From assembly GCF_964204645.1 (NCBI RefSeq), contig NC_134025.1:29182299-29246298 (forward strand): DNA of 64,000 bases, written 5' to 3'. This document shows, one piece after another, positions 34,643 to 64,000 of this stretch; positions within the stretch are counted from its first letter, which is position 1, and each line of letters opens with the position of its first letter. The position numbers and the translations under genes were made by a program. Origin of the DNA: Tubulanus polymorphus. Its lineage: Eukaryota; Animalia; Nemertea. The notes under the pieces are model-generated. The model was not told where the DNA came from. It ran no database searches and saw nothing but the letters and a program-made list of their open reading frames with translations.

Positions 34643-35050
34643 CTAGTACTCCTGTGAATTAACATCTTCTTCTGTTCTTTTCTTTGCACTTTTCCTCGGT
34701 AGTAACTGCGTGAGGATATTCGGTAGAACGCCTCCTTGAGCTACGGTCACCCCAGCCAGAAGTGTATTCAATTCTTCATCATTTCGAATGGCGAGTTGTA
34801 TATGTCTCGGAATTATTGTCTTCTTTTTGTTGTCCCTCGCGGCATTGCCGGATAACTCTAAAACCTCGGCAACCAGATACTCGAGTACAGCTGCCAGATA
34901 GACGGGTGCCCCAATACCGACTCGATCGGCGTATCGACCCTTTCTCAAATGGCGATGTACCCTTCCAACTGGAAATGTTAATCCAGCCCTTTTAGACCTA
35001 GTCACTCCTTTTGTTTTAATCTTTCCGCCTTTGCCCCCGCGACCTGACAT
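34643..35050 (-). CDS. H2AX: Histone H2A variant, H2A.X type (135 aa, intronless)
   Basis: [10 protein letters not shown]...[13 protein letters not shown]...[13 protein letters not shown]...IRNDEELN...QGGVLPNI, ending in SQEY. True ATG is at 35050; the ORF track start lies upstream. Confidence 0.9.
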
Positions 35051-36897: not shown

Positions 36898-39809
<2,912 letters not shown>

Positions 39810-40410: not shown

Positions 40411-43341
40411 ATGGATAACAATTCAGAACGTGAGTGAGATTTTCTCATGTCCTGTTAGCCAGTACCAGCTCGATTATGAGGCCATCCCTTGAAATTCAAT
40501 AAACTCAGCAGCCGTCTGTATGTCAGAAAACATTTCGTCAATTATCAGCAATCAACAGCCAGTTGAACAACAGGCAACACATTTTCGTGCCCGTGCCCGT
40601 GGGATGGGACTGGGCGAACTAACAAACTAACTGCTTGAATAGTTAAACCGAAGAAGTTTTAAAGACAAACTGGTCAAACTATGGGCAGCCAGACAATACA
40701 TCTAATAATATAAGTCGTAACCACCAAAAATTGAATCTGATTGGATTCAATAATACTAGTGAATTGATTGAATAGAAAAAGAATGTAGGCTAGTGGGACA
40801 TACGAAAAGGCTACCGAAATAGCCTTGTACTGAGTGGCAAACATAATAGTATGAATGATGGTGATGATAAAGCCATACCCAATTTTATTCATTTCAATGA
40901 TATGCCACATGAGAGAAGTGTCACTTCATTCGGCTTGGACTTGATTTTTCTCTCCTGACTCCTTATTTTTCTGTCCATTTCAAAGTTTCCAACTCTTGTT
41001 TTAAACAAAACCTGCATTCATCAACGGTCAACTGCTGTTATGCGGGACCGGAAAATCTGCAAGAAGATCGGGAAAAGGAAGGTTTATCTCAAGAAAAAGT
41101 AGGTAATTCTTCTTATTGGTGACTGTGCATTCTAATATTGTAAATATCTGTAAATTCTTATATGGCGACCCTTTTTCATTCTTAGATTCTCCTTCAACCA
41201 TACGAATATATCCTGCAAGTTCCGGGCAAACATGTTCGCACCAAACTTTCCAAGGTAAGGAATCAATTTGAATTGCCTGAAATTTAGAAATCAATTGGAT
41301 CTTTATCTGAACTCAGAATTTATCATCTAGTATCTTGAACTTCTTGTAGGCTTTCAATCAATGGTTGAAAATTAGTGATGAAAAGTTGGAAAATGTTATG
41401 GCTGTTACACAAATGCTTCACAATGCAAGTCTGTTGTAAGTCATCATCATGTTTGCAAATTCTGAATTAAAAAATGAGTGTTTCTGATCTTTTTAAATAC
41501 ATTCATGTGATATCTTTCAAGGATTGATGATATCGAAGATAATTCTATATTAAGAAGAGGGATTCCTGGTAAGTTTAATTGTTGAGGGAAACTGACAATG
41601 AAATTATTGAAAATGGGTTGATTTTATCGTCAGTGCTTGATTTAGTCAGCAGTTTATTTATCGTCCATTCTATAAATATCCAATGCATGAACTCACTATA
41701 CATATATTATGTAACAGGTTCGCTGACATGAGTTTTAATGAATTCATTACTGTGTAATTGCAGTTGCCCATAATATTTATGGTGTTGCTCAGACGATCAA
41801 TTCAGCCAATTATGTCTACTTCTTGGGACTTCAAAAAGTGCTCAGTCTCGGACACCCAGACGCGACTACCGTATTCACAGGTAAACATGCATTTAAAACA
41901 TACTGATAGATATCCGTCTTGATTAGTTACTATGAAATGAATTCATGAATCAGTTTTGTAAAAACCTTGCTATAATGTAGCTGATGAAATTCCAAAGGGG
42001 CTGTTTATTAAGTATGAACTGTAAATAAGATTTTAATGATTTCCCCCAATTTTTTACTCTCGTGGTCCCTGTCCTATTGATGCATACCTGTTGGCACTTA
42101 AGTCCTAATCAAAAATTGTAAACCTCACAAACTCGACTCTAATGAAGACTGAGTAAGTTGCATATTTGATTTTCATGTATGTTTTTATGAGACCAGTTCA
42201 AGTATTAAAGGCTGACAAAATGTTTACATTTAAGAACAGTTGATAGAATTGCACCGTGGTCAGGGTATGGATATCTATTGGAGAGACTCGTATAGCTGCC
42301 CGACTGAGGAAGAGTACAAAGAAATGGTTATAAGAAGTGCGTAAGAGATCTTGATTTTGTTGTTCTCTATTTAGAGTTATGGCATCATTCATCTCGAAAT
42401 ATTGCTGTTTTTTTTTTTCACAGAAACTGGAGGATTGTTTGGATTAGCTGTGCGTCTTATGCAATTATTTAGCGAAAATAAAAGGTAATGGAATCACTTT
42501 AATGTACTTTCTATCAATTTCATCTTTTTCGAAATAAGGAAAATACAGGAAAAAATGCTTTATTTTTTTTCAGTAATTTTAAACCCCTTTTAGACAACTT
42601 GGGGTTGTATTTCCAGATACGAGATGATTATGCCAATCTTTGTTCGAAAGAGGTTGGTTGAATATTCACTTATTTTTTCTATTTACCCTGATGAAGGATA
42701 CAGTAACTTCAGCCTCAAATATTCTTTCAATTCATTGTTGAATAACAGTAAGACGTTACACCGACGATTTGCTTGATTCTGACCTGAAGGAAAATAATTC
42801 CTATGCGTGCCTCATTTATCTCCTTAAAGAGCCGTTCATTTTGCTCGGCTCCAAGCCCTTCCCCATGTATGTATGAGCAGTGAAACATAACGAGAAGTGG
42901 TAAATTTTTGTCATACATTCATCAATCATTCATCTTTGATTTCAACTCAATTTTCAGTACGAGTCGAATAAAAGCTACTGCGAAGACTTGACCGAAGGAA
43001 AGTTCTCATTTCCACTCGTTTGTGGAATTCGTAGGGAAACGCAAAGCAATCAAATCATGAATATACTTCGACAGAGAACCAATGACAAAGATGTGAAAAA
43101 ATATTGCGTCACATTACTTGAAAAGTTGGGAGTATTCGAGTATACTAAAACAATACTTATTGAATTAGAAGAGAGGTAAATTTCTTGAAGTTACATCTGG
43201 TTCAACTGTAACCGCTGTATGTACTTGTATCTATGTTTTATATTTTTCAGGATTATTGGACAAATTGCCGATCATGGAGGAAATGTCTATTTGAATAATT
43301 TGATTACTGAATTAAAGAAATTATACCGAGACAGAAGCTGA
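40411..43341 (+). CDS. GGPS1: Geranylgeranyl pyrophosphate synthase (multi-exon)
   Basis: [41 protein letters not shown] (FARM), [46 protein letters not shown] (SARM), [11 protein letters not shown]. Stop TGA 43339-43341. The first two small exons are inferred from splice phase. Confidence 0.95.
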
Positions 43342-43686
43342 TTGTAATAAAAATGAAAAATGTACGTCGTTTTATAGGTGCATTGATTGATTATGTCCAT
43401 TAGGGTATGATTTTTTTTTTAAATCCTGCTGTAGTCAACTTTTCTCGACTTCTCCAAAATTCAAATCAGTCACATCACAAGAACATTTGAATATACCGGG
43501 GTATACTGCGTGTTTGAATACAAGGAGTCCCAACGTGTGTAACACGCATATCAGCGCTGATAAGAATCTATGTCTAATGTGTACCGGTATATGCGTTAAC
43601 GAAATAAATATGTGTACATAAAATATAATCAAATTTTTCTAAATTGATTCAATCTTGGATATTGGGGTAGTGAAAAAAAAAATGTT

Positions 43687-43857
43687 CAGTGGAACTTCGT
43701 TACAGCGAACTCGGATACAACGATTCATCGGATATAACAAATATAGTATTTTGTCCCAAGTAAGACAATTTGATTAATTTCAACTATAATATATAATTAT
43801 CAGTTACACCGAACACATTTCCGGCCCCGAGAAGTTCGCCGGAACGAGGTTCCACTG
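43687..43857. mobile_element. Tc1/mariner (pogo/Tigger-like) MITE
   Basis: TIR CAGTGGAACTTCGTTACAGCGAACT vs AGTTCGCCGGAACGAGGTTCCACTG followed by TA; left flank reads TT. Confidence 0.7.
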
Positions 43858-44351
43858 TAGAAGCTTCCAAGTGATGGCATTTCTACTGCGCGTTAAGCAA
43901 TATGATTATGCTGCCAGGCCTACCCGACCCCTCTCGGACATCCCCCAATCTTCGATCATCCAGACATCAATCACATTAGAAACGAATCCCGCTTAACTGT
44001 GGCTACAATAATGATTTTTTTACAGCAGGAGAAAATGTTAGAATGATACTTTTATGTCTTATTATATTAGCCTGTATCTTAATTCATTCAACATTGTCGC
44101 CTTAGCTTAAGAGTTTGTTAGAGCTTGTTACTCCAAGATTTAGAGTTCACCGGTGAATTCCAATTTCAATTGAATTCACAAGAATTAAACATGGTTTAGA
44201 AATATTCACAAACAAAACAAAAAATAAAATGGATAAATTTCATAGTGGCAATTGAAATTGCGATTTAACCACGTCGTTCGCTCACCAGTTATCTTCAGCA
44301 AACTTTTGAGCAAATACACCCTTCCCCCAACGACCTGGTTACGCCCGTAAG

Positions 44352-44816
44352 CAGGCGCGGGATCCAGGGCCATACAGTGACTACAACACAGTGAAAAAAG
44401 GGCACCAACTTTGAAAAGGGCCAGTATTAATGCCCAGCGAGCGAGTTTGAGTTTGAGTGCCATTCATTGGTATCATGCCACTAAATTTGTCGTCACATTC
44501 AATTCGTTTTAAGCCTTTTTTTAGATTTTTGGTCAAAATTTGCCCTTTTTCGATTAGATTTATAGAGCGACAATAATTTGTTTTTTAGAATAGTGCCCTT
44601 TTGAGTAAAAAAATGCCTTAGATTGCCTTTTATGATTTTGGATAATTTATTTCATTCACATTTTGCTTTAGGCCTAGTACAGGAAGGCAATTATTTTTTT
44701 TATGACGCACAAATTGTGTGCCCTTTTATTTACTTTTTTCCCGAAACATAAATTTTTCAAGGGCATTTGAAAACTGCGACTACCGCACGTGCTGCATGTG
44801 TCCAGATCCGCGCCTG
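44352..44816. mobile_element. hAT-like MITE with 6-bp TSD
   Basis: CAGGCGCGG...CCGCGCCTG ends; direct repeat CGTAAG at 44346-44351 and 44817-44822; internal AAGGGCA/TGCCCTT motifs. Confidence 0.75.
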
Positions 44817-45209
44817 CGTAAGCGTTCGTATTACTACGATAGGCCTTGTTCCTGAGAATAGACATAAAAAGGCAGATCGTGACGATTAAAACTACAATAT
44901 ACTGTTTACATGAGTCGAATGATAAATAATAATAGGCCTACAATGTAATGATATTCATTTCATCATCAATTAGATCGAATTCAAAATTACGACAGAATTG
45001 GAAAAAGCAAATAACCGGTACTTGATAATCGCTCATTAGTGCCCATTGCTAGAAACACGACGCCGTCATAACGCTCGACCACTGAACGTTCAATCTTAAT
45101 TTGCAGTAATAAATTAACTGGAAATTCATCCGATTGAATTGCAATTTTACCAACATATGCCACGAGACAACACATTTCATCATTGATTTTTTTGTGTCGA
45201 TGAATATTT

Positions 45210-45450
<241 letters not shown>

Positions 45451-45699
45451 GTACATATATCATCATCAGCTCTCCGCATTTCTTGACGGAGACAAAACTA
45501 ACAGAAAAATCGTGTCTCGCGACAAGTTACCAACCTTGGATTCGAAGTTCTTGGTACTGATAATGATTCAGATTTAGGATCAGATAACCATGATCTTTAA
45601 AGAAAAAAATCTTATGTGTGACAACCTATTGAAATGATAAACAGATAAAGGAATCGTGCTAGTTCGCAGTCCCTGCGGTTTCCCTTATTTTTTACATCT

Positions 45700-45809
45700 G
45701 GACCCAGTTCCACAGTTGTGAGTTAAGATTTGACTCAGTGTTAACTCATTGAAGATGAACTAATTTCAACTCAGTGTTAACTCTAACTCATGGCTCTGGA
45801 ACTGGATCC
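45700..45809. mobile_element. Short palindromic MITE-like element
   Basis: GGACCCAGTTCCACAGTTGTGAGTTA ... TAACTCATGGCTCTGGAACTGGATCC imperfect inverted ends; internal duplicated ACTCAGTGTTAACTC. Confidence 0.55.
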
Positions 45810-46387
45810 TGCTGAATGAGATTTGCAGGTCACATGGTTTTCAATGAATATCCATGGCTTGATGACGAAGGACAAGGCCATCATGAAATCACTGAACGAC
45901 CGAACAGGTGTTTGCACGCATGAACGGGTGTTTGCAGTCTCGAGACTAGAGGATGTCCGTTTCATGTGATTTGCGTACCCCCTTGATAGGTTTCTAGTTC
46001 TTCATATCTGATACATTCATCGTGCTGGATTGCCATCAAATTGATAAAAGAAGGTATAGCAAAGAACCCCAATTGCCCTTATTTTGAATTTGCCCTTATA
46101 ATTGCTGATCAATTCTGATGTCATATCATGATTTAATTTCCCCATGGATATTTCTGGTCGTTCTCGTCGTTGGCTCAAAATATCAAAATGGCCCTCGCTA
46201 AAATCAATGCTACTGGCAGATGTGCATCACAATCATATCATTCGAATATAATTCGATTTATGCAATACACCATAAATGTCTATAAAATGTTCATGTGTGA
46301 TTTATAATGCTTCATAACCAGTTTGCCATTTGATGAAAGACAGTTAGAGAGACAAAGAATTTGATTGTCACTATCATCACTGTCAAA

Positions 46388-49300
46388 ATGATGAGGTAAG
46401 TCATCCTTTAAAGCAAGTTCGGATTTATTTGCTTTTAGCAACGGACTGCAAGAAAAACTGAAAGTAAACGTAATAACTAGATAAGGGAGAAGCTAAGAAT
46501 AAAGTCATATGAATTACAAGTACGATGAATTGTCAAAATAACTTGCGCAAATCAGAAAATTAATCGCGACTTCGGCAGTTTCAAATACATTCGCTCAAGT
46601 GAATCTAATTTCCCCCGTGGTGGATCGGTCAACACTTAAAGTGGTTTTTTAATGTTCTTTTTTTAGTCTCCGATCGGTTGGACTCGCAATCTTTGTGGTG
46701 ATTGCTTTCTTTCATTCTGGATCAACCGACCAATTAATACAAGGCAGAGTATCACGATCTATAGTCACTGCATATTGAAATACATTGATTTATCAAAAAT
46801 TGATAAAAATATTTCGTGCTTACCGTATTCATATTTCAGAGCCAGATTGCGAAGGCGATTGGTTGTATAAAACATTTGACGGACAATGCTATGATAGTAA
46901 GGGCGATAGATTTCAATTTGTTTTCCATATTCAGGATAATATTTTTTTAACTTCATCTGTCTTCTTTTTTAGGACCGGATAAATTGGCAGTAGCCGACCA
47001 ATTAATACAAGGCAGAGTATCACGATTTATAGTCACTGCATATTGAAATACATTGATTTATCAAAAATTGATAAAAATATTTCGTGCTTACCGTATTCAT
47101 ATTTCAGAGCCAGATTGCGAAGGCGATTGGTTGTATAAAACATTTGACGGACAATGCTATGATAGTAAGGGCGATAGATTTCAATTTGTTTTCCATATTC
47201 AGGATAATATTTTTTTAACTTCATCTGTCTTCTTTTTTTAGGACCGGGTAAATTGGCAGTATAGCGTGCATCAATAATTCATGATGAAACTACTCTAAGA
47301 TTGACATGAGTTGATTATAAATATTTCTGCGGATTTGGTTAATATAGAGTTCTTTAAAAGGTTATTTAAGGGGGAATTGACGGTTACTTTCAGATATCAA
47401 CGAATGCAGCTCGGATTCGACCAATAACTGCGGGGATGGTGGAGTCTGCAGTAATACAGCGGGGTCGTATTATTGTACATGTAACGACGGTTATGAGTTG
47501 AGCAGTGATGGAAAACAATGCGATGGTAGGCACAGTTTTCATTGAATCATTCGTACACGAATGGAAAAGTTCTTTATGGGAAAATTGACGGTTACTTTCA
47601 GATATCGACGAATGCAGCTCGGATTCGACCAATAACTGCGGGGATGGTGGAGTCTGCAGTAATACAGCGGGGTCGTATTATTGTACATGTAACGACGGTT
47701 ATGAGTTGAGCAGTGATGGAAAACAATGCGATGGTAGGCACAGTTTTCATTGAATCATTCGTACACGAATGGAAAAGTTCTTTATGGGAAAATTGACGGT
47801 TACTTTCAGATATCGACGAATGCAGCTCGGATTCGACCAATAACTGCGGGGATGGTGGAGTCTGCAGTAATACAGCGGGGTCGTATTATTGTACATGTAA
47901 CGACGGTTATGAGTTGAGCAGTGATGGAAAACAATGCGATGGTAGGCACAGTTTTCATTGAATCATTCGTACACGAATGGAAAAGTTCTTTATGGGAAAA
48001 TTGACGGTTACTTTCAGATATCGACGAATGCAGCTCGGATTCGACCAATAACTGCGGGGATGGTGGAGTCTGCAGTAATACAGCGGGGTCGTATTATTGT
48101 ACATGTAACGACGGTTATGAGTTGAGCAGTGATGGAAAACAATGCGATGGTAGGCACAGTTTTCATTGAATCATTCGTACACGAATGGAAAAGTTCTTTA
48201 TGGGAAAATTGACGGTTACTTTCAGATATCGACGAATGCAGCTCGGATTCGACCAATAACTGCGGGGATGGTGGAGTCTGCAGTAATACAGCGGGGTCGT
48301 ATTATTGTACATGTAACGACGGTTATGAGTTGAGCAGTGATGGAAAACAATGCGATGGTAGGCACAGTTTTCATTGAATCATTCGTACACGAATGGAAAA
48401 GTTCTTTATGGGAAAATTGACGGTTACTTTCAGATATCGACGAATGCAGCTCGGATTCGACCAATAACTGCGGGGACGGTGGAGTCTGCAGTAATACAGC
48501 GGGGTCGTATTATTGTACATGTAACGACGGTTATGAGTTGAGCAGTGATGGAAAACAATGCGATGGTAGGCACAGTTTTCATTGAATCATTCGTACACGA
48601 ATGGAAAAGTTCTTTATGGGAAAATTGACGGTTACTTTCAGATATCGACGAATGCAGCTCGGATTCGACCAATAACTGCGGGGACGGTGGAGTCTGCAGT
48701 AATACAGCGGGGTCGTATTATTGTACATGTAACGACGGTTATGAGTTGAGCAGTGATGGAAAACAATGCGATGGTAGGCACGGTTTTCATTGAATCATTC
48801 GTACACGAATGGAAAAGTTCTTTATGGGAAAATTGACGGTTACTTTCAGATATCGACGAATGCAGCTCGGATTCGACCAATAACTGCGGGGACGGTGGAG
48901 TCTGCAGTAATACAGCGGGGTCGTATTATTGTACATGTAACGACGGTTATGAGTTGAGCAGTGATGGAAAACAATGCGATGGTAGGCACGGTTTTCATTG
49001 AATCATTCGTACACGAATGGAAAAGTTCTTTATGGGAAAATTGACGGTTACTTTCAGATATCGACGAATGCAGCTCGGATTCGACCAATAACTGCGGGGA
49101 CGGTGGAGTCTGCAGTAATACAGCGGGGTCGTATTATTGTACATGTAACGACGGTTATGAGTTGAGCAGTGATGGAAAACAATGCGATGGTAGGCACGGT
49201 TTTCATTGAATCATTCGTACACGAATGGAAAAGTTCTTTATGGGAAAATTGACGGTTACTTTCAGATATCGACGAATGCAGCTCGGATTCGACCAATAAC

Positions 49301-52300
49301 TGCGGGGACGGTGGAGTCTGCAGTAATACAGCTGGGTCGTATTATTGTACATGTAACGACGGTTATGAGTTGAGCAGTGATGGAAAACAATGCGATGGTA
49401 GGCACAGTTTTCATTGAATCATTCGTACACGAATGGAAAAGTTCTTTATGGGAAAATTGACGGTTACTTTCAGATATCGACGAATGCAGCTCGGATTCGA
49501 CCAATAACTGCGGGGACGGTGGAGTCTGCAGTAATACAGCGGGGTCGTATTATTGTACATGTAACGACGGTTATGAGTTGAGCAGTGATGGAAAACAATG
49601 CGATGGTAGGCACAGTTTTCATTGAATCATTCGTACACGAATGGAAAAGTTCTTTATGGGAAAATTGACGGTTACTTTCAGATATCGACGAATGCAGCTC
49701 GGATTCGACCAATAACTGCGGGGATGGTGGAGTCTGCAGTAATACAGCGGGGTCGTATTATTGTACATGTAACGACGGTTATGAGTTGAGCAGTGATGGA
49801 AAACAATGCGATGGTAGGCACAGTTTTCATTGAATCATTCGTACACGAATGGAAAAGTTCTTTATGGGAAAATTGACGGTTACTTTCAGATATCGACGAA
49901 TGCAGCTCGGATTCGACCAATAACTGCGGGGATGGTGGAGTCTGCAGTAATACAGCGGGGTCGTATTATTGTACATGTAACGACGGTTATGAGTTGAGCA
50001 GTGATGGAAAACAATGCGATGGTAGGCACAGTTTTCATTGAATCATTCGTACACGAATGGAAAAGTTCTTTATGGGAAAATTGACGGTTACTTTCAGATA
50101 TCGACGAATGCAGCTCGGATTCGACCAATAACTGCGGGGATGGTGGAGTCTGCAGTAATACAGCGGGGTCGTATTATTGTACATGTAACGACGGTTATGA
50201 GTTGAGCAGTGATGGAAAACAATGCGATGGTAGGCACAGTTTTCATTGAATCATTCGTACACGAATGGAAAAGTTCTTTATGGGAAAATTGACGGTTACT
50301 TTCAGATATCGACGAATGCAGCTCGGATTCGACCAATAACTGCGGGGATGGTGGAGTCTGCAGTAATACAGCGGGGTCGTATTATTGTACATGTAACGAC
50401 GGTTATGAGTTGAGCAGTGATGGAAAACAATGCGATGGTAGGCACAGTTTTCATTGAATCATTCGTACACGAATGGAAAAGTTCTTTATGGGAAAATTGA
50501 CGGTTACTTTCAGATATCGACGAATGCAGCTCGGATTCGACCAATAACTGCGGGGATGGTGGAGTCTGCAGTAATACAGCGGGGTCGTATTATTGTACAT
50601 GTAACGACGGTTATGAGTTGAGCAGTGATGGAAAACAATGCGATGGTAGGCACAGTTTTCATTGAATCATTCGTACACGAATGGAAAAGTTCTTTATGGG
50701 AAAATTGACGGTTACTTTCAGATATCGACGAATGCAGCTCGGATTCGACCAATAACTGCGGGGACGGTGGAGTCTGCAGTAATACAGCGGGGTCGTATTA
50801 TTGTACATGTAACGACGGTTATGAGTTGAGCAGTGATGGAAAACAATGCGATGGTAGGCACAGTTTTCATTGAATCATTCGTACACGAATGGAAAAGTTC
50901 TTTATGGGAAAATTGACGGTTACTTTCAGATATCGACGAATGCAGCTCGGATTCGACCAATAACTGCGGGGACGGTGGAGTCTGCAGTAATACAGCGGGG
51001 TCGTATTATTGTACATGTAACGACGGTTATGAGTTGAGCAGTGATGGAAAACAATGCGATGGTAGGCACGGTTTTCATTGAATCATTCGTACACGAATGG
51101 AAAAGTTCTTTATGGGAAAATTGACGGTTACTTTCAGATATCGACGAATGCAGCTCGGATTCGACCAATAACTGCGGGGACGGTGGAGTCTGCAGTAATA
51201 CAGCGGGGTCGTATTATTGTACATGTAACGACGGTTATGAGTTGAGCAGTGATGGAAAACAATGCGATGGTAGGCACAGTTTTCATTGAATCATTCGTAC
51301 ACGAATGGAAAAGTTCTTTATGGGAAAATTGACGGTTACTTTCAGATATCGACGAATGCAGCTCGGATTCGACCAATAACTGCGGGGACGGTGGAGTCTG
51401 CAGTAATACAGCGGGGTCGTATTATTGTACATGTAACGACGGTTATGAGTTGAGCAGTGATGGAAAACAATGCGATGGTAGGCACAGTTTTCATTGAATC
51501 ATTCGTACACGAATGGAAAAGTTCTTTATGGGAAAATTGACGGTTACTTTCAGATATCGACGAATGCAGCTCGGATTCGACCAATAACTGCGGGGACGGT
51601 GGAGTCTGCAGTAATACAGCGGGGTCGTATTATTGTACATGTAACGACGGTTATGAGTTGAGCAGTGATGGAAAACAATGCGATGGTAGGCACGGTTTTC
51701 ATTGAATCATTCGTACACGAATGGAAAAGTTCTTTATGGGAAAATTGACGGTTACTTTCAGATATCGACGAATGCAGCTCGGATTCGACCAATAACTGCG
51801 GGGACGGTGGAGTCTGCAGTAATACAGCGGGGTCGTATTATTGTACATGTAACGACGGTTATGAGTTGAGCAGTGATGGAAAACAATGCGATGGTAGGCA
51901 CAGTTTTCATTGAATCATTCGTACACGAATGGAAAAGTTCTTTATGGGAAAATTGACGGTTACTTTCAGATATCGACGAATGCAGCTCGGATTCGACCAA
52001 TAACTGCGGGGACGGTGGAGTCTGCAGTAATACAGCGGGGTCGTATTATTGTACATGTAACGACGGTTATGAGTTGAGCAGTGATGGAAAACAATGCGAT
52101 GGTAGGCACAGTTTTCATTGAATCATTCGTACACGAATGGAAAAGTTCTTTATGGGAAAATTGACGGTTACTTTCAGATATCGACGAATGCAGCTCGGAT
52201 TCGACCAATAACTGCGGGGATGGTGGAGTCTGCAGTAATACAGCGGGGTCGTATCATTGTACATGTAACGACGGTTATGAGTTGAGCAGTGATGGAAAAC

Positions 52301-55300
52301 AATGCGATGGTAGGCACAGTTTTCATTGAATCATTCGTACACGAATGGAAAAGTTCTTTATGGGAAAATTGACGGTTACTTTCAGATATCGACGAATGCA
52401 GCTCGGATTCGACCAATAACTGCGGGGATGGTGGAGTCTGCAGTAATACAGCGGGGTCGTATCATTGTACATGTAACGACGGTTATGAGTTGAGCAGTGA
52501 TGGAAAACAATGCGATGGTAGGCACAGTTTTCATTGAATCATTCGTACACGAATGGAAAAGTTCTTTATGGGAAAATTGACGGTTACTTTCAGATATCGA
52601 CGAATGCAGCTCGGATTCGACCAATAACTGCGGGGATGGTGGAGTCTGCAGTAATACAGCGGGGTCGTATTATTGTACATGTAACGACGGTTATGAGTTG
52701 AGCAGTGATGGAAAACAATGCGATGGTAGGCACAGTTTTCATTGAATCATTCGTACACGAATGGAAAAGTTCTTTATGGGAAAATTGACGGTTACTTTCA
52801 GATATCGACGAATGCAGCTCGGATTCGACCAATAACTGCGGGGATGGTGGAGTCTGCAGTAATACAGCGGGGTCGTATTATTGTACATGTAACGACGGTT
52901 ATGAGTTGAGCAGTGATGGAAAACAATGCGATGGTAGGCACAGTTTTCATTGAATCATTCGTACACGAATGGAAAAGTTCTTTATGGGAAAATTGACGGT
53001 TACTTTCAGATATCGACGAATGCAGCTCGGATTCGACCAATAACTGCGGGGATGGTGGAGTCTGCAGTAATACAGCGGGGTCGTATCATTGTACATGTAA
53101 CGACGGTTATGAGTTGAGCAGTGATGGAAAACAATGCGATGGTAGGCACAGTTTTCATTGAACCATTCGTACACGAATGGAAAAGTTCTTTATGGGAAAA
53201 TTGACGGTTACTTTCAGATATCGACGAATGCAGCTCGGATTCGACCAATAACTGCGGGGATGGTGGAGTCTGCAGTAATACAGCGGGGTCGTATTATTGT
53301 ACATGTAACGACGGTTATGAGTTGAGCAGTGATGGAAAACAATGCGATGGTAGGCACAGTTTTCATTGAATCATTCGTACACGAATGGAAAAGTTCTTTA
53401 TGGGAAAATTGACGGTTACTTTCAGATATCGACGAATGCAGCTCGGATTCGACCAATAACTGCGGGGATGGTGGAGTCTGCAGTAATACAGCGGGGTCGT
53501 ATTATTGTACATGTAACGACGGTTATGAGTTGAGCAGTGATGGAAAACAATGCGATGGTAGGCACAGTTTTCATTGAATCATTCGTACACGAATGGAAAA
53601 GTTCTTTATGGGAAAATTGACGGTTACTTTCAGATATCGACGAATGCAGCTCGGATTCGACCAATAACTGCGGGGATGGTGGAGTCTGCAGTAATACAGC
53701 GGGGTCGTATTATTGTACATGTAACGACGGTTATGAGTTGAGCAGTGATGGAAAACAATGCGATGGTAGGCACAGTTTTCATTGAATCATTCGTACACGA
53801 ATGGAAAAGTTCTTTATGGGAAAATTGACGGTTACTTTCAGATATCGACGAATGCAGCTCGGATTCGACCAATAACTGCGGGGACGGTGGAGTCTGCAGT
53901 AATACAGCGGGGTCGTATTATTGTACATGTAACGACGGTTATGAGTTGAGCAGTGATGGAAAACAATGCGATGGTAGGCACAGTTTTCATTGAATCATTC
54001 GTACACGAATGGAAAAGTTCTTTATGGGAAAATTGACGGTTACTTTCAGATATCGACGAATGCAGCTCGGATTCGACCAATAACTGCGGGGACGGTGGAG
54101 TCTGCAGTAATACAGCGGGGTCGTATTATTGTACATGTAACGACGGTTATGAGTTGAGCAGTGATGGAAAACAATGCGATGGTAGGCACAGTTTTCATTG
54201 AATCATTCGTACACGAATGGAAAAGTTCTTTATGGGAAAATTGACGGTTACTTTCAGATATCGACGAATGCAGCTCGGATTCGACCAATAACTGCGGGGA
54301 CGGTGGAGTCTGCAGTAATACAGCGGGGTCGTATTATTGTACATGTAACGACGGTTATGAGTTGAGCAGTGATGGAAAACAATGCGATGGTAGGCACGGT
54401 TTTCATTGAATCATTCGTACACGAATGGAAAAGTTCTTTATGGGAAAATTGACGGTTACTTTCAGATATCGACGAATGCAGCTCGGATTCGACCAATAAC
54501 TGCGGGGACGGTGGAGTCTGCAGTAATACAGCGGGGTCGTATTATTGTACATGTAACGACGGTTATGAGTTGAGCAGTGATGGAAAACAATGCGATGGTA
54601 GGCACGGTTTTCATTGAATCATTCGTACACGAATGGAAAAGTTCTTTATGGGAAAATTGACGGTTACTTTCAGATATCGACGAATGCAGCTCGGATTCGA
54701 CCAATAACTGCGGGGACGGTGGAGTCTGCAGTAATACAGCGGGGTCGTATTATTGTACATGTAACGACGGTTATGAGTTGAGCAGTGATGGAAAACAATG
54801 CGATGGTAGGCACGGTTTTCATTGAATCATTCGTACACGAATGGAAAAGTTCTTTATGGGAAAATTGACGGTTACTTTCAGATATCGACGAATGCAGCTC
54901 GGATTCGACCAATAACTGCGGGGACGGTGGAGTCTGCAGTAATACAGCTGGGTCGTATTATTGTACATGTAACGACGGTTATGAGTTGAGCAGTGATGGA
55001 AAACAATGCGATGGTAGGCACAGTTTTCATTGAATCATTCGTACACGAATGGAAAAGTTCTTTATGGGAAAATTGACGGTTACTTTCAGATATCGACGAA
55101 TGCAGCTCGGATTCGACCAATAACTGCGGGGACGGTGGAGTCTGCAGTAATACAGCGGGGTCGTATTATTGTACATGTAACGACGGTTATGAGTTGAGCA
55201 GTGATGGAAAACAATGCGATGGTAGGCACAGTTTTCATTGAATCATTCGTACACGAATGGAAAAGTTCTTTATGGGAAAATTGACGGTTACTTTCAGATA

Positions 55301-58300
55301 TCGACGAATGCAGCTCGGATTCGACCAATAACTGCGGGGATGGTGGAGTCTGCAGTAATACAGCGGGGTCGTATCATTGTACATGTAACGACGGTTATGA
55401 GTTGAGCAGTGATGGAAAACAATGCGATGGTAGGCACAGTTCTCATTGAATCATTCGTACACGAATGGAAAAGTTCTTTATGGGAAAATTGACGGTTACT
55501 TTCAGATATCGACGAATGCAGCTCGGATTCGACCAATAACTGCGGGGATGGTGGAGTCTGCAGTAATACAGCGGGGTCGTATCATTGTACATGTAACGAC
55601 GGTTATGAGTTGAGCAGTGATGGAAAACAATGCGATGGTAGGCACAGTTCTCATTGAATCATTCGTACACGAATGGAAAAGTTCTTTATGGGAAAATTGA
55701 CGGTTACTTTCAGATATCGACGAATGCAGCTCGGATTCGACCAATAACTGCGGGGATGGTGGAGTCTGCAGTAATACAGCGGGGTCGTATCATTGTACAT
55801 GTAACGACGGTTATGAGTTGAGCAGTGATGGAAAACAATGCGATGGTAGGCACAGTTTTCATTGAATCATTCGTACACGAATGGAAAAGTTCTTTATGGG
55901 AAAATTGACGGTTACTTTCAGATATCGACGAATGCAGCTCGGATTCGACCAATAACTGCGGGGATGGTGGAGTCTGCAGTAATACAGCGGGGTCGTATCA
56001 TTGTACATGTAACGACGGTTATGAGTTGAGCAGTGATGGAAAACAATGCGATGGTAGGCACAGTTTTCATTGAATCATTCGTACACGAATGGAAAAGTTC
56101 TTTATGGGAAAATTGACGGTTACTTTCAGATATCGACGAATGCAGCTCGGATTCGACCAATAACTGCGGGGATGGTGGAGTATGCAGTAATACAGCGGGG
56201 TCGTATCATTGTACATGTAACGACGGTTATGAGTTGAGCAGTGATGGAAAACAATGCGATGGTAGGCACAGTTTTCATTGAATCATTCGTACACGAATGG
56301 AAAAGTTCTTTATGGGAAAATTGACGGTTACTTTCAGATATCGACGAATGCAGCTCGGATTCGACCAATAACTGCGGGGATGGTGGAGTCTGCAGTAATA
56401 CAGCGGGGTCGTATTATTGTACATGTAACGACGGTTATGAGTTGAGCAGTGATGGAAAACAATGCGATGGTAGGCACAGTTTTCATTGAATCATTCGTAC
56501 ACGAATGGAAAAGTTCTTTATGGGAAAATTGACGGTTACTTTCAGATATCGACGAATGCAGCTCGGATTCGACCAATAACTGCGGGGATGGTGGAGTCTG
56601 CAGTAATACAGCGGGGTCGTATTATTGTACATGTAACGACGGTTATGAGTTGAGCAGTGATGGAAAACAATGCGATGGTAGGCACAGTTTTCATTGAATC
56701 ATTCGTACACGAATGGAAAAGTTCTTTATGGGAAAATTGACGGTTACTTTCAGATATCGACGAATGCAGCTCGGATTCGACCAATAACTGCGGGGATGGT
56801 GGAGTCTGCAGTAATACAGCGGGGTCGTATTATTGTACATGTAACGACGGTTATGAGTTGAGCAGTGATGGAAAACAATGCGATGGTAGGCACAGTTTTC
56901 ATTGAATCATTCGTACACGAATGGAAAAGTTCTTTATGGGAAAATTGACGGTTACTTTCAGATATCGACGAATGCAGCTCGGATTCGACCAATAACTGCG
57001 GGGATGGTGGAGTCTGCAGTAATACAGCGGGGTCGTATTATTGTACATGTAACGACGGTTATGAGTTGAGCAGTGATGGAAAACAATGCGATGGTAGGCA
57101 CAGTTTTCATTGAATCATTCGTACACGAATGGAAAAGTTCTTTATGGGAAAATTGACGGTTACTTTCAGATATCGACGAATGCAGCTCGGATTCGACCAA
57201 TAACTGCGGGGACGGTGGAGTCTGCAGTAATACAGCGGGGTCGTATTATTGTACATGTAACGACGGTTATGAGTTGAGCAGTGATGGAAAACAATGCGAT
57301 GGTAGGCACAGTTTTCATTGAATCATTCGTACACGAATGGAAAAGTTCTTTATGGGAAAATTGACGGTTACTTTCAGATATCGACGAATGCAGCTCGGAT
57401 TCGACCAATAACTGCGGGGACGGTGGAGTCTGCAGTAATACAGCGGGGTCGTATTATTGTACATGTAACGACGGTTATGAGTTGAGCAGTGATGGAAAAC
57501 AATGCGATGGTAGGCACAGTTTTCATTGAATCATTCGTACACGAATGGAAAAGTTCTTTATGGGAAAATTGACGGTTACTTTCAGATATCGACGAATGCA
57601 GCTCGGATTCGACCAATAACTGCGGGGACGGTGGAGTCTGCAGTAATACAGCGGGGTCGTATTATTGTACATGTAACGACGGTTATGAGTTGAGCAGTGA
57701 TGGAAAACAATGCGATGGTAGGCACAGTTTTCATTGAATCATTCGTACACGAATGGAAACGTTCTTTATGGGAAAATTGACGGTTACTTTCAGATATCGA
57801 CGAATGCAGCTCGGATTCGACCAATAACTGCGGGGACGGTGGAGTCTGCAGTAATACAGCGGGGTCGTATTATTGTACATGTAACGACGGTTATGAGTTG
57901 AGCAGTGATGGAAAACAATGCGATGGTAGGCACAGTTTTCATTGAATCATTCGTACACGAATGGAAACGTTCTTTATGGGAAAATTGACGGTTACTTTCA
58001 GATATCGACGAATGCAGCTCGGATTCGACCAATAACTGCGGGGACGGTGGAGTCTGCAGTAATACAGCGGGGTCGTATTATTGTACATGTAACGACGGTT
58101 ATGAGTTGAGCAGTGATGGAAAACAATGCGATGGTAGGCACAGTTTTCATTGAATCATTCGTACACGAATGGAAAAGTTCTTTATGGGAAAATTGACGGT
58201 TACTTTCAGATATCGACGAATGCAGCTCGGATTCGACCAATAACTGCGGGGATGGTGGAGTCTGCAGTAATACAGCGGGGTCGTATCATTGTACATGTAA

Positions 58301-61300
58301 CGACGGTTATGAGTTGAGCAGTGATGGAAAACAATGCGATGGTAGGCACAGTTCTCATTGAATCATTCGTACACGAATGGAAAAGTTCTTTATGGGAAAA
58401 TTGACGGTTACTTTCAGATATCGACGAATGCAGCTCGGATTCGACCAATAACTGCGGGGATGGTGGAGTCTGCAGTAATACAGCGGGGTCGTATCATTGT
58501 ACATGTAACGACGGTTATGAGTTGAGCAGTGATGGAAAACAATGCGATGGTAGGCACAGTTTTCATTGAATCATTCGTACACGAATGGAAAAGTTCTTTA
58601 TGGGAAAATTGACGGTTACTTTCAGATATCGACGAATGCAGCTCGGATTCGACCAATAACTGCGGGGATGGTGGAGTCTGCAGTAATACAGCGGGGTCGT
58701 ATCATTGTACATGTAACGACGGTTATGAGTTGAGCAGTGATGGAAAACAATGCGATGGTAGGCACAGTTTTCATTGAATCATTCGTACACGAATGGAAAA
58801 GTTCTTTATGGGAAAATTGACGGTTACTTTCAGATATCGACGAATGCAGCTCGGATTCGACCAATAACTGCGGGGATGGTGGAGTCTGCAGTAATACAGC
58901 GGGGTCGTATTATTGTACATGTAACGACGGTTATGAGTTGAGCAGTGATGGAAAACAATGCGATGGTAGGCACAGTTTTCATTGAATCATTCGTACACGA
59001 ATGGAAAAGTTCTTTATGGGAAAATTGACGGTTACTTTCAGATATCGACGAATGCAGCTCGGATTCGACCAATAACTGCGGGGATGGTGGAGTCTGCAGT
59101 AATACAGCGGGGTCGTATTATTGTACATGTAACGACGGTTATGAGTTGAGCAGTGATGGAAAACAATGCGATGGTAGGCACAGTTTTCATTGAATCATTC
59201 GTACACGAATGGAAAAGTTCTTTATGGGAAAATTGACGGTTACTTTCAGATATCGACGAATGCAGCTCGGATTCGACCAATAACTGCGGGGATGGTGGAG
59301 TCTGCAGTAATACAGCGGGGTCGTATTATTGTACATGTAACGACGGTTATGAGTTGAGCAGTGATGGAAAACAATGCGATGGTAGGCACAGTTTTCATTG
59401 AATCATTCGTACACGAATGGAAAAGTTCTTTATGGGAAAATTGACGGTTACTTTCAGATATCGACGAATGCAGCTCGGATTCGACCAATAACTGCGGGGA
59501 CGGTGGAGTCTGCAGTAATACAGCGGGGTCGTATTATTGTACATGTAACGACGGTTATGAGTTGAGCAGTGATGGAAAACAATGCGATGGTAGGCACAGT
59601 TTTCATTGAACCATTCGTACACGAATGGAAAAGTTCTTTATGGGAAAATTGACGGTTACTTTCAGATATCGACGAATGCAGCTCGGATTCGACCAATAAC
59701 TGCGGGGATGGTGGAGTCTGCAGTAATACAGCGGGGTCGTATTATTGTACATGTAACGACGGTTATGAGTTGAGCAGTGATGGAAAACAATGCGATGGTA
59801 GGCACAGTTTTCATTGAACCATTCGTACACGAATGGAAAAGTTCTTTATGGGAAAATTGACGGTTACTTTCAGATATCGACGAATGCAGCTCGGATTCGA
59901 CCAATAACTGCGGGGATGGTGGAGTCTGCAGTAATACAGCGGGGTCGTATTATTGTACATGTAACGACGGTTATGAGTTGAGCAGTGATGGAAAACAATG
60001 CGATGGTAGGCACAGTTTTCATTGAATCATTCGTACACGAATGGAAAAGTTCTTTATGGGAAAATTGACGGTTACTTTCAGATATCGACGAATGCAGCTC
60101 GGATTCGACCAATAACTGCGGGGATGGTGGAGTCTGCAGTAATACAGCGGGGTCGTATTATTGTACATGTAACGACGGTTATGAGTTGAGCAGTGATGGA
60201 AAACAATGCGATGGTAGGCACAGTTTTCATTGAATCATTCGTACACGAATGGAAAAGTTCTTTATGGGAAAATTGACGGTTACTTTCAGATATCGACGAA
60301 TGCAGCTCGGATTCGACCAATAACTGCGGGGATGGTGGAGTCTGCAGTAATACAGCGGGGTCGTATTATTGTACATGTAACGACGGTTATGAGTTGAGCA
60401 GTGATGGAAAACAATGCGATGGTAGGCACAGTTTTCATTGAATCATTCGTACACGAATGGAAAAGTTCTTTATGGGAAAATTGACGGTTACTTTCAGATA
60501 TCGACGAATGCAGCTCGGATTCGACCAATAACTGCGGGGATGGTGGAGTCTGCAGTAATACAGCGGGGTCGTATTATTGTACATGTAACGACGGTTATGA
60601 GTTGAGCAGTGATGGAAAACAATGCGATGGTAGGCACAGTTTTCATTGAATCATTCGTACACGAATGGAAAAGTTCTTTATGGGAAAATTGACGGTTACT
60701 TTCAGATATCGACGAATGCAGCTCGGATTCGACCAATAACTGCGGGGATGGTGGAGTCTGCAGTAATACAGCGGGGTCGTATTATTGTACATGTAACGAC
60801 GGTTATGAGTTGAGCAGTGATGGAAAACAATGCGATGGTAGGCACAGTTTTCATTGAATCATTCGTACACGAATGGAAAAGTTCTTTATGGGAAAATTGA
60901 CGGTTACTTTCAGATATCGACGAATGCAGCTCGGATTCGACCAATAACTGCGGGGATGGTGGAGTCTGCAGTAATACAGCGGGGTCGTATTATTGTACAT
61001 GTAACGACGGTTATGAGTTGAGCAGTGATGGAAAACAATGCGATGGTAGGCACAGTTTTCATTGAATCATTCGTACACGAATGGAAAAGTTCTTTATGGG
61101 AAAATTGACGGTTACTTTCAGATATCGACGAATGCAGCTCGGATTCGACCAATAACTGCGGGGACGGTGGAGTCTGCAGTAATACAGCGGGGTCGTATTA
61201 TTGTACATGTAACGACGGTTATGAGTTGAGCAGTGATGGAAAACAATGCGATGGTAGGCACAGTTTTCATTGAACCATTCGTACACGAATGGAAAAGTTC

Positions 61301-64000
61301 TTTATGGGAAAATTGACGGTTACTTTCAGATATCGACGAATGCAGCTCGGATTCGACCAATAACTGCGGGGATGGTGGAGTCTGCAGTAATACAGCGGGG
61401 TCGTATTATTGTACATGTAACGACGGTTATGAGTTGAGCAGTGATGGAAAACAATGCGATGGTAGGCACAGTTTTCATTGAACCAATTGTACACGAATGG
61501 AAAAGTTCTTTATGGGAAAATTGACGGTTACTTTCAGATATCGACGAATGCAGCTCGGATTCGACCAATAACTGCGGGGATGGTGGAGTCTGCAGTAATA
61601 CAGCGGGGTCGTATTATTGTACATGTAACGACGGTTATGAGTTGAGCAGTGATGGAAAACAATGCGATGGTAGGCACAGTTTTCATTGAATCATTCGTAC
61701 ACGAATGGAAAAGTTCTTTATGGGAAAATTGACGGTTACTTTCAGATATCGACGAATGCAGCTCGGATTCGACCAATAACTGCGGGGATGGTGGAGTCTG
61801 CAGTAATACAGCGGGGTCGTATTATTGTACATGTAACGACGGTTATGAGTTGAGCAGTGATGGAAAACAATGCGATGGTAGGCACAGTTTTCATTGAATC
61901 ATTCGTACACGAATGGAAAAGTTCTTTATGGGAAAATTGACGGTTACTTTCAGATATCGACGAATGCAGCTCGGATTCGACCAATAACTGCGGGGATGGT
62001 GGAGTCTGCAGTAATACAGCGGGGTCGTATTATTGTACATGTAACGACGGTTATGAGTTGAGCAGTGATGGAAAACAATGCGATGGTAGGCACAGTTTTC
62101 ATTGAATCATTCGTACACGAATGGAAAAGTTCTTTATGGGAAAATTGACGGTTACTTTCAGATATCGACGAATGCAGCTCGGATTCGACCAATAACTGCG
62201 GGGATGGTGGAGTCTGCAGTAATACAGCGGGGTCGTATTATTGTACATGTAACGACGGTTATGAGTTGAGCAGTGATGGAAAACAATGCGATGGTAGGCA
62301 CAGTTTTCATTGAATCATTCGTACACGAATGGAAAAGTTCTTTATGGGAAAATTGACGGTTACTTTCAGATATCGACGAATGCAGCTCGGATTCGACCAA
62401 TAACTGCGGGGATGGTGGAGTCTGCAGTAATACAGCGGGGTCGTATTATTGTACATGTAACGACGGTTATGAGTTGAGCAGTGATGGAAAACAATGCGAT
62501 GGTAGGCACAGTTTTCATTGAATCATTCGTACACGAATGGAAAAGTTCTTTATGGGAAAATTGACGGTTACTTTCAGATATCGACGAATGCAGCTCGGAT
62601 TCGACCAATAACTGCGGGGATGGTGGAGTCTGCAGTAATACAGCGGGGTCGTATTATTGTACATGTAACGACGGTTATGAGTTGAGCAGGGATGGAAAAC
62701 AATGCGATGGTAGGCACAGTTTTCATTGAATCATTCGTACACGAATGGAAAAGTTCTTTATGGGAAAATTGACGGTTACTTTCAGATATCGACGAATGCA
62801 GCTCGGATTCGACCAATAACTGCGGGGATGGTGGAGTCTGCAGTAATACAGCGGGGTCGTATTATTGTACATGTAACGACGGTTATGAGTTGAGCAGTGA
62901 TGGAAAACAATGCGATGGTAGGCACAGTTTTCATTGAATCATTCGTACACGAATGGAAAAGTTCTTTATGGGAAAATTGACGGTTACTTTCAGATATCAA
63001 CGAATGCAGCTCGGATTCGACCAATAACTGCGGGGATGGTGGAGTCTGCAGTAATACAGCGGGGTCGTATTATTGTACATGTAACGACGGTTATGAGTTG
63101 AGCAGTGATGGAAAACAATGCGATGGTAGGCACAGTTTTCATTGAATCATTCGTACACGAATGGAAAAGTTCTTTATGAGAAAATTGACGGTTACTTTCA
63201 GATATCGACGAATGCAGCTCGGATTCGACCAATAACTGCGGGGATGGTGGAGTCTGCAGTAATACAGCGGGGTCGTATTATTGTACATGTAACGACGGTT
63301 ATGAGTTGAGCAGTGATGGAAAACAATGCGATGGTAGGCACAGTTTTCATTGAATAATTCGTACACGAATGGAAAAGTTCTTTATGGGAAAATTGACGGT
63401 TACTTTCAGATATCGACGAATGCAGCTCGGATTCGACCAATAACTGCGGGGATGGTGGAGTCTGCAGTAATACAGCGGGGTCGTATTATTGTACATGTAA
63501 CGACGGTTATGAGTTGAGCAGTGATGGAAAACAATGCGATGGTAGGCACAGTTTTCATTGAATCATTCGTACACGAATGGAAAAGTTCTTTATGGGAAAA
63601 TTGACGGTTACTTTCAGATATCGACGAATGCAGCTCGGATTCGACCAATAACTGCGGGGATGGTGGAGTCTGCAGTAATACAGCGGGGTCGTATTATTGT
63701 ACATGTAACGACGGTTATGAGTTGAACAGTGATGGAAAACAATGCGATGGTAGGCACAGTTTTCATTGAATCATTCGTACACGAATGGAAAAGTTCTTTA
63801 TGGGAAAATTGACGGTTACTTTCAGATATCGACGAATGCAGCTCGGATTCGACCAATAACTGCGGGGATGGTGGAGTCTGCAGTAATACAGCGGGGTCGT
63901 ATTATTGTACATGTAACGACGGTTATGAGTTGAGCAGTGATGGAAAACAATGCGATGGTAGGCACAGTTTTCATTGAATCATTCGTACACGAATGGAAAA
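46388..64000 (+). CDS. Giant secreted poly-calcium-binding-EGF protein (fibrillin/fibulin-type modules), 3' end outside window
   Basis: Exon 46388-46395 (ATGATGAG|GTAAGT). Exon 46667-46743 completes MMSLRSVGLAIFVVIAFFHSGSTDQLIQ (signal-peptide-like). 57-nt exons 46840-46896 and 47108-47164 (PDCEGDWLYKTFDGQCYD). Then 80 exons of 132 nt (47394-47525 + 208k, k=0..79), each flanked by TTTCAG and GTAGGC and encoding a 6-Cys cbEGF. The repeat exons are strongly supported; linkage to the 5' exons is inferred. Confidence 0.88.
46726..47260 (+). repeat. 268-bp tandem duplication (2 near-identical copies), each carrying the 57-nt Cys exon
   Basis: CCGACCAATTAATACAAGGCAGAG...TAAATTGGCAGTA occurs twice at a 268-bp offset, which also explains the duplicated ORFs at 46765 and 47033. 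Confidence 0.95.
47375..64000 (+). repeat. 208-bp exon+intron tandem array, at least 80 units, generally 0-3 substitutions per unit, no indels
   Basis: Exact 208-bp periodicity is maintained from 47394 to the window end; last complete exon is 63826-63957. Confidence 0.99.

Follow-up and report, generated by a model that had tools for sequence, protein, structure and literature searches.

A satellite-like array of cbEGF exon-intron units as the probable middle part of a gene for a stalked extracellular protein

A tandem array of 208-bp units runs to the 3' edge of the 64,000-nucleotide stretch of DNA analysed here (the window), and the question raised by this locus is whether the array is satellite DNA or, as proposed in a first-pass annotation, the body of a gene encoding a chain of calcium-binding EGF (cbEGF) modules. 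The structural part of that proposal was upheld: at least 80 near-identical units had been claimed, and exactly 80 were counted in the window, with exon starts at 47394+208k and spacings of 208 exactly in 79 of 79 cases. All 80 consist, as had been described, of a 132-nt phase 1-1 exon and a 76-nt GT-AG intron (GTAGGC...TTTCAG) that together give a continuous spliced frame. TRF returned 80.0 copies with a 99% match, and the units are 99.3% identical. No unit carries a stop, an indel, a Cys loss or a splice-dinucleotide change, the intron GT and AG both being intact in 80/80. The longest stop-free stretch of the unspliced array is 59 codons on the forward strand and 95 on the reverse; the long frame is thus present only after splicing, and an unspliced reading frame was ruled out. 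The module peptide is the same in 65 of the 80 units, the changes elsewhere being Y>H (11 units), D>N (2), S>R (1) and S>N (1), and a count of one K per module agrees with the single repeated tryptic peptide that had been anticipated. The TTGAC motif put forward as a branch site is present; however, its A lies just 14 nt away from the intron's 3' end, and TTTAT at -26 would fit equally. No non-cbEGF exons were found between modules across the 80 consecutive units, and no other EGF exons 5' of the array in the upstream part of the window.

Table 1. Positions of the array and of the features predicted 5' of it, numbered from the start of the window
Feature	Position	Strand	Remarks
Predicted exon 1, ATG ATG AG, phase 2	46388..46395	+	donor 11.9 bits, best of 180 GT in 43400-47393; model only
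Predicted exon 2, signal-peptide-like, needs GC donor	46667..46743	+	acceptor 11.0 bits, ranking second among 186 AG
268-bp tandem duplication, two copies, 4 differences, frame kept	46726..47261	+	present as contigs in X1-X3
Predicted 57-nt exon, copy 1, phase 1-1, 19 aa, two Cys	46840..46896	+	acceptor 9.5, donor 3.9 bits
Predicted 39-nt chimeric exon from duplication junction, GC donor	46973..47011	+	open, phase 1-1; acceptor 9.5; model only
57-nt exon, copy 2	47108..47164	+	identical to copy 1
Possible 6-nt microexon, frame-optional	47242..47247	+	acceptor 9.1, donor 7.8 bits
cbEGF array	47394..64000	+	80 units x 208 bp; extends past window edge

An array of this kind could be an assembly artefact in which a few copies were multiplied by the assembler, and two observations are compatible with this: the window stops inside the array, and spanning reads were not seen in the run contigs. 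However, the 208-bp unit forms a closed circle in three public DNA runs (X1-X3, from two samples) at depths of 2,317, 256 and 788, compared to 7-38 for flanking contigs, and the 17 unit haplotypes are arranged in ordered blocks within the array. Because the unit stands at high depth in all three runs, the array is not assembly inflation; this read-depth check speaks against a few-copy expansion, and the artefact reading is largely refuted and highly improbable. The unit/flank depth ratio is ~93 in X1 and 35-55 in X2 and X3, with denominators that differ and may be multi-copy and library types that are not given; in one run the unit is ~90-fold deeper than a neighbouring contig. From these contig depth ratios, a proxy for true copy number, we infer a copy number on the order of 100, and the estimate rises up to ~2-fold if the 268-bp contig represents two copies per haplotype. 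The reads of X1-X3 retain the intron and exon-exon joints are absent from them, indicating that the runs behave as DNA. No RNA run came up for a 4.5-kb query to which the 132-nt exon contributed less than 5% of the words, a query that could not list runs with the exon only. Positions 47267-47371 are uncovered in all three runs, where a filter may drop records.

Fifteen distinct variants occur in the array: 8 lie in the intron (0.11 per site), 3 are synonymous (0.12 per site) and 4 are missense (0.037 per site), the missense rate being about one third of the silent rate. The missense deficit has a one-sided p of 0.033, or 0.063 with transition weighting, and all four missense changes spare the cbEGF consensus; the lack of disruptive changes taken alone gives a p of 0.11. 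These 15 variants lean, marginally, towards purifying selection. Adjacent units differ less than units in shuffled order (0.77 versus 1.41; 0 of 5,000 permutations), one block of six units occurs twice (units 6-11 and 33-38), a periodicity lies near 14 units (z -3.8), and two four-gamete site pairs are present; this pattern shows unequal-crossover structure. The same variation bears on a run-away amplification without use, whereby a genuine EGF exon, belonging to a small gene for a secreted protein, grew into a minisatellite in a gene that is now silent or decaying or includes just a few of the units on splicing. We consider this unlikely. A divergence of 0.7% marks the array as young or constantly homogenised and hence intact by default, and a young array appears intact whether used or not; the missense deficit (p 0.03-0.06), however, argues for use.

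Splice sites were scored with a small training set of 23 host introns from PIKfyve and from GGPS1, which lies upstream of the array; one of 17 PIKfyve junctions was excluded as unreliable. The array intron falls in the range of 75-94 nt that includes 11 of these 23. The array donor scores above 98% of 2,683 GT sites, and donor and acceptor are each the top-scoring site within their own unit. The acceptor, at 2.4 bits, lies above 84% of all AG, but 21 of the 23 host acceptors, scored leave-one-out, are stronger; exon skipping is therefore possible, and the weak acceptor would suit an amplified but unused array. The probable exit from the array is canonical, which argues against disuse: in a 3,492-nt contig of X1, an EGF exon exits at the same phase-1 position via a different canonical donor (6.4 bits) and the contig continues into sequence absent from the window (30 letters read). 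This contig is probably the end of the array, and alternatively it could be a paralogue. Since the probable last EGF exon has a donor, further exons would follow downstream.

At the other end, a signal-peptide exon and small exons in frame with the array are predicted as the 5' end of the gene (Table 1). The model is stop-free from the ATG at 46388 through the array (3,601 aa), and ~80 aa precede the array. By the hydropathy measure, on which the signal peptide is a resemblance, exon 2 has a peak of 3.1 over 11 residues, and equal hydrophobicity was reached by one of the 66 upstream acceptor-frames used as controls. Use of exon 2 with GT donors only was rejected, as the nearest GT donor (46748) leads to a stop. 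The model requires two GC donors, and the donor is GT in 23 of 23 host introns; this requirement, the second recent duplication directly 5' of the array and the resemblance of the 19-aa exon to a domain fragment would all fit an unused locus, but the duplication likewise keeps the frame, and the splice sites at exons 1 and 2 are strong. The 19-aa exon gave no match in Pfam. It may be a vWD remnant, with a non-significant likeness to the vWD start (E 0.18 versus PDB; E 4.8-8.4 among 256 proteins), or the N-terminal hairpin of a C-type lectin; both readings are no more than leads. When short spliced fragments (24-77 aa) were searched, two of six candidates matched, both to unrelated sequences (76% over 57% of the query).

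The module itself was matched by Pfam EGF_CA (PF07645) over all 43 positions (E=8.5e-12; 45.6 bits versus a cut-off of 27). Six Cys with EGF spacing and the cbEGF consensus are present in 80/80 modules, as are the calcium consensus D/N-x-D/N-E/Q...D/N*...Y/F, defined as in excerpts of PMC4826273, and a packing aromatic four residues after Cys5; the hydroxylation residues are kept in every module. The calcium-binding and Asn-hydroxylation consensus reported for the array in the first-pass annotation thus holds throughout. The calcium consensus, packing aromatic, rod-like organisation, and hydroxylation and O-glucose motifs are described in excerpts of PMC4826273 and PMC8405936, and at the consensus level the array module matches all of the published calcium, packing, hydroxylation and O-glucose features. 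A structure model of a single module (pLDDT 74.8) has the central hairpin; Foldseek with this one module returned EGF chains, none at E<=0.001. The top PDB matches of the module are human CD97/EMR2 (EGF-TM7 stalks). Based on sequence, the modules, each with a net charge of -8, would bind calcium and, stacked on one another, form a long stiff stalk. The ~480 Cys of the array within the window alone would make folding costly, and LPA repeat number reportedly affects secretion, to go by the title of a paper cited in PMC7613587; both points fit an array that is spliced in small part or not at all.

Our preferred explanation, with a probability of about 0.58, is that the array of at least 80 units is the middle of a working gene whose exported protein uses a long stiff stalk to carry its C-terminal part. 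One symmetric phase 1-1 exon and its intron would have been duplicated, and the unit would then have been multiplied and homogenised via unequal crossing-over, events that could not break the frame. The signal peptide would take the protein into the secretory pathway, each module would bind one Ca2+ at its own N-terminal junction, and the Tyr four residues after Cys5 would pack against the module that follows, an arrangement known from fibrillin and Notch. At a length of ~2.5 nm per cbEGF module, a value from general background, the result would be an acidic rod of roughly 0.2-0.25 micrometre, likely keeping a C-terminal part, be it an anchor or a domain for polymerisation or binding, at a distance from the small N-terminal piece. 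Altogether, the anatomy supports the proposal of a satellite that is a gene (host-typical intron, good donor, in-frame 5' end, probable 3' exit and the lean in selection), while its splicing is predicted only. Such a locus would be an unusually clean protein-coding gene body resembling satellite DNA, which standard annotation would mask or collapse. If spliced in full, it would be ~3 times the longest uninterrupted cbEGF run among 256 proteins (28 modules), with near-complete identity, and it makes testable the fidelity of the spliceosome over ~100 identical exons, the maximal length of disulphide-rich rod that a cell folds and secretes, and selection on stalk length. A bolder version is rather unlikely: ~100 interchangeable exons would be spliced into the longest near-homopolymeric cbEGF rod so far, over 0.2 micrometre, skipping and allelic copy change would tune its length as a molecular ruler, and the gene would be masked from annotation. 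Tuning by skipping would be allowed because every exon is symmetric with a weak acceptor.

The array was compared to a set of 256 proteins, and five proteins with homogenised cbEGF runs were scanned by Pfam. No orthologue was found among the 256 (best module identity 60%), and no description of such an array was found in the literature searched, mainly open-access main texts. The suggestion that a homogenised cbEGF run is undescribed was nevertheless overstated, since annotated Nematostella, Astyanax and amphioxus (P0256) proteins have near-identical runs. Nematostella vectensis XP_048579921.1 (P0147; RefSeq label 'neurogenic locus notch homolog protein 1', with 42 cluster members named isoforms) resembles the array in its hydrophobic N-terminus and long near-identical cbEGF run (28 matches to the motif, 19 of them in an unbroken run, at a median identity of 92%); however, it has far fewer modules, a 38-aa Notch-type module and interspersed D8C, and at 49% to the array module it is not an orthologue. 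Adhesion GPCRs of Astyanax (XP_049336902.1, P0140) and Pelobates (XP_063305290.1, P0261) have, like the array, a recently amplified cbEGF run, there as a stalk; P0140 has 19 uninterrupted modules (median 83%), whereas the array is at least 4 times longer and 99% identical. EGF-TM7 GPCRs have GPS/GAIN and 7TM, and the corresponding 3' part of the array lies beyond the window. Beside the homogenised runs lie 7TM/GPS (P0140, P0261), D8C (P0147), LCCL (P0256) and SUEL lectin (P0243) domains. Because all five scanned proteins carry other domains, a stalk for a C-terminal part is likelier than a secreted homopolymer with a structural or mineral-binding role, as a component of a fibre, tube, glue or cuticle, whose function would reside in the array and not depend on any important terminal domain. 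The latter is quite doubtful: a signal-like start with ~80 aa alone before the array, acidic modules that bind calcium by consensus, a probably lophotrochozoan host and the precedent of scallop byssus, whose main components include EGF-rich proteins with up to 49 domains (excerpts of PMC9168380), are all in keeping with it, but further exons would follow the donor on the probable last exon, and the identical six-Cys modules provide neither a free Cys nor an evident motif for cross-linking. Of the rod-like extracellular protein first envisaged, the stalk is therefore kept, and the stand-alone homopolymer is less likely.

Long cbEGF/EGF runs in extracellular proteins also occur in fibrillins and in the ascidian vitelline-coat proteins CiVC57/HrVC120, CiVC57 comprising a signal, a vWF domain, 24 EGF, ZP and TM (excerpts of PMC9265791). 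The array shares the fibrillin-type five-residue linker; however, fibrillin modules are diverged and TB-interrupted (median of medians 42% over the 256 proteins), and no TB (8-Cys) domains of fibrillin/LTBP type occur across the 80 modules. Dumpy-type EGF-DPY-EGF triads are likewise absent from the array in the window, which holds cbEGF modules only; the C-terminal ZP domain of such proteins is not seen here either, its place lying beyond the window.

The array is an extreme case of a known kind of gene growth, symmetric-exon amplification with concerted evolution. It fits the structure of an intron-containing coding VNTR of the LPA KIV-2 type, with a frame-preserving, homogenised exon-plus-intron unit. 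According to excerpts of PMC11462820, human LPA kringle IV type 2 varies from 1 to ~40 units and likewise has an exon-plus-intron tandem unit, one disulphide-rich domain and a secreted protein, but its unit is a 5.6-kb two-exon kringle, whereas that of the array is 208 bp with one exon in at least 80 units. Intragenic repeats homogenised by unequal crossing-over are shared with Drosophila dumpy (~40 PIGSFEAST copies; PMC2930355), abalone VERL (repeats 3-22 >95% identical; PMC2704960) and the EGF modules of tenascins (PMC2267704); however, the PIGSFEAST copies are all contained in a single large exon, VERL repeats have no introns between them, and the homogenised unit there is not a cbEGF exon.

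The first-pass annotation had proposed that a satellite-like array is the gene for a giant protein of calcium-binding EGF (cbEGF) modules, made of at least 80 near-identical exon-intron units, and the array bears out that structure: 80 exon starts run from 47394 to the window edge, the 208-bp spacing is exact in 79 of 79 intervals, and each unit divides, as had been claimed, into a 132-nt exon, phase 1-1, followed by 76 nt of GT-AG intron. Two units differ on average at 1.4 of 208 bases (0.7%), and comparison of the 79 full units gave 15 variant sites, 17 haplotypes and no indels. Read without splicing, the array has a longest open frame of 59 codons on the forward strand and 95 codons on the reverse. 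Neighbouring units are more alike than units in shuffled order (0.77 vs 1.41 differences; 0 of 5,000 permutations), with a second similarity peak at lags 13-15 (z -3.3 to -3.8); the six-unit block of units 6-11 is repeated at units 33-38, and all four allele combinations occur at two site pairs. This pattern is that expected of repeated unequal crossing-over in multi-unit steps. The exon is symmetric and its length is divisible by three, so whole-unit gain or loss would keep the frame.

The array stretch, compared over window positions 46994-47601, was found in three public DNA sequencing runs (two samples, one study), in all of which the unit forms a closed 208-bp circle that still includes the intron. 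The circle had depths of 2,317, 256 and 788, and the flanking contigs 7-38. In the run designated X1, unit depth was 93 times that of a 3,492-nt contig (depth 24.8), or 106 times when corrected for variant words; run depth is not itself copy number, the baseline here is this contig, and X1 is possibly the source sample itself, so these ratios give an order of magnitude only. Copies probably number on the order of about 100 rather than a few, with at least 80 in the window. Inflation of a few copies by the assembler is contradicted by this ratio and is extremely improbable, since the variant blocks stand in order and the circle is far deeper than the flanking contigs in all three runs.

All 80 modules contain six cysteines with the N-terminal calcium motif, the C3-x-N-x4-Y-x-C4 and narrower C3-x-N-T-x-G-S-Y-x-C4 motifs, and an aromatic residue four places past Cys5, using motif definitions from excerpts of PMC4826273 and PMC8405936. 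The module scored 45.6 bits against Pfam EGF_CA (cut-off 27), confirming its cbEGF identity. The 80 predicted modules amount to about 363 kDa, with a net charge of -8 per module and no N-glycosylation sequons.

Splice signals were scored against 23 host junctions, 16 from PIKfyve placed by homology and seven from GGPS1 giving an open frame. The 76-nt array intron is ordinary for the host, since 11 of the 23 host introns measure 75-94 nt. The array donor (7.7 bits) outranks 98% of 2,683 GT sites. Its acceptor has a weak score of 2.4 bits, lower than 21 of 23 host acceptors, and is nonetheless the top-scoring AG within the unit. Between the end of GGPS1 (near 43340) and the array lie 4 kb for a 5' end, and the region upstream of the array has its best donor at 46395 and second-best acceptor at 46667; this predicted junction links an ATG (46388) to a hydrophobic, signal-peptide-like exon, matched in hydrophobicity by one of 66 control acceptor-frames. 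Four more of the top nine acceptors set small phase 1-1 exons in the model, two of them duplicated within a 268-bp frame-keeping tandem, and model and array together would encode 3,601 aa with no stop, relying on two GC donors (6.7 bits scored as GT). The duplication (46726-47261) begins within predicted exon 2 and stops past a possible 6-nt microexon, whose donor in copy 1 is AT, not GT; this would carry the exon on as far as the duplicated GC donor, with the frame kept. A predicted 19-aa two-Cys exon (46840-46896) has a weak likeness to a vWD domain start (E 0.18) or to a C-type lectin N-terminal hairpin, and may be the remnant of a lost head domain. At 44026-44100 (+), a short hydrophobic, signal-peptide-like frame of ~20 codons, with a strong acceptor before it and a stop after it, is either chance or a decayed exon.

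One X1 contig opens within an EGF exon (two differences in 61 bases) and exits it at the same position by another canonical donor, beyond which its sequence has no counterpart in the window. Most simply, this would be the array's last exon, in which case further exons would follow downstream; alternatively, the contig may come from a paralogue. Variants within the array occur at 0.037 per site for missense changes (4), 0.12 for synonymous changes (3) and 0.11 in the intron (8), a missense deficit with p 0.033, or 0.063 when transition-weighted. Of the four amino-acid replacements, one is D>N at a D/N position, one is Y>H at the variable position preceding Cys4, and two lie within the Cys5-Cys6 loop. 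This spectrum leans, marginally, towards function. The array is a real feature, and probably part of the predicted gene.

Homogeneity was compared in 265 proteins from EGF searches (best 120 of 252, 2, and best 150 of 6,625, overlapping), 256 of which had at least four motif-matched modules. Among these 256, median internal module identity was 42%, and the longest unbroken cbEGF run was at least 28 modules; eight had at least three adjacent modules at 90% identity or more, in runs of up to five. Runs are under-counted, as the strict module pattern overlooks some modules, and databases may collapse such arrays. No orthologue of the array protein occurred among the proteins compared (best module identity 60%). 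The most homogenised among the matches listed were a Nematostella protein, Astyanax and Pelobates adhesion GPCRs, an amphioxus LCCL protein and a Hydra lectin-domain protein. Other domains stand beside the run in each of the five, which suggests that the run is a stalk or spacer in them. For this reason a cbEGF stalk with an unseen C-terminal part is favoured for the predicted protein (probability about 0.58) over, in falling order of likelihood, unused amplification of an EGF exon, a stand-alone structural homopolymer and, far behind, an assembly artefact. The rod-like homopolymer first proposed retains its module array, but its stand-alone form is improbable in view of these five proteins. 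A cbEGF module is about 2.5 nm long, and 80-100 modules would reach 0.2-0.25 micrometre, acting as a stalk that carries the C-terminal part. Tandem cbEGF pairs of this consensus are described, in an excerpt of PMC4826273, as rigid and rod-like once Ca-bound. Separately, RefSeq cluster members number 42 for Nematostella vectensis XP_048579921.1 (P0147), 24 for Astyanax XP_049336902.1 (P0140) and 8 for a SUEL lectin protein (P0243), mostly isoforms that are longer or shorter than one another by one or more complete modules (38 or 49 aa); these steps may reflect genuine skipping of exons in homogenised arrays, or ambiguous mapping of reads.

At the DNA level the array resembles LPA KIV-2, a coding repeat of exons and introns with 1 to about 40 units (excerpts of PMC11462820, PMC7613587), and at the protein level its predicted product resembles the stalks that EGF modules form in adhesion receptors and in matrix proteins. 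On features readable here, it is of neither the fibrillin nor the dumpy kind, the latter having about 40 near-identical repeats in one exon under concerted evolution (excerpt of PMC2930355). Excerpts on further comparison systems covered VERL (PMC2704960), EGF homogenisation in tenascin (PMC2267704), ascidian vitelline-coat EGF proteins (PMC9265791) and scallop byssus proteins, in which there are as many as 49 EGF-like domains (PMC9168380). The literature search found no description of a near-identical cbEGF exon-intron array this large. The array is an extension of known kinds of repeat, not a new kind, and stands apart by its size and uniformity: its one-exon units are 99% identical and number at least 80, probably about 100. 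It would be more remarkable still if it were spliced over its full length and that length could be tuned.

The array's neighbours in the window are PIKfyve, histone H2A, calmodulin and GGPS1. The histone ends in an H2A.X-type tail. A PIKfyve exon had its best of five matches in the annelid Paralvinella palmiformis (E 3e-33, with 46% over 41% of the query; next 6e-10). By this one search the host is likely a lophotrochozoan, perhaps an annelid.

Features in the neighbourhood of the array
Feature	Position	Strand	Remarks
Probable 3-hydroxyacyl-CoA dehydrogenase exons	10291-12523	+	weak Pfam 3HCDH_N, E 0.026
PIKfyve/FAB1 gene	13498-33082	+	FYVE and PIP5K domains; source of splice-model junctions
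Histone H2A, single exon	34643-35092	-	C-terminal SQEY
Calmodulin-like EF-hand gene	37448-39082	-	
GGPS1-like polyprenyl synthase	41366-43341	+	open frame over seven introns; array gene's closest upstream neighbour
Perfect 44-bp inverted repeat	7151-7194 and 7467-7510		MITE-like; flanks about 270 bp
Minisatellite, 17 bp x 5.8	18906-19004		
~280-bp interspersed repeat, three copies	20985-21260, 22595-22835, 31893-32183	one inverted	PIKfyve introns; 83-89% alike; probably a small mobile element
(TA)123 microsatellite	45214-45460		about 0.9 kb 5' of predicted ATG
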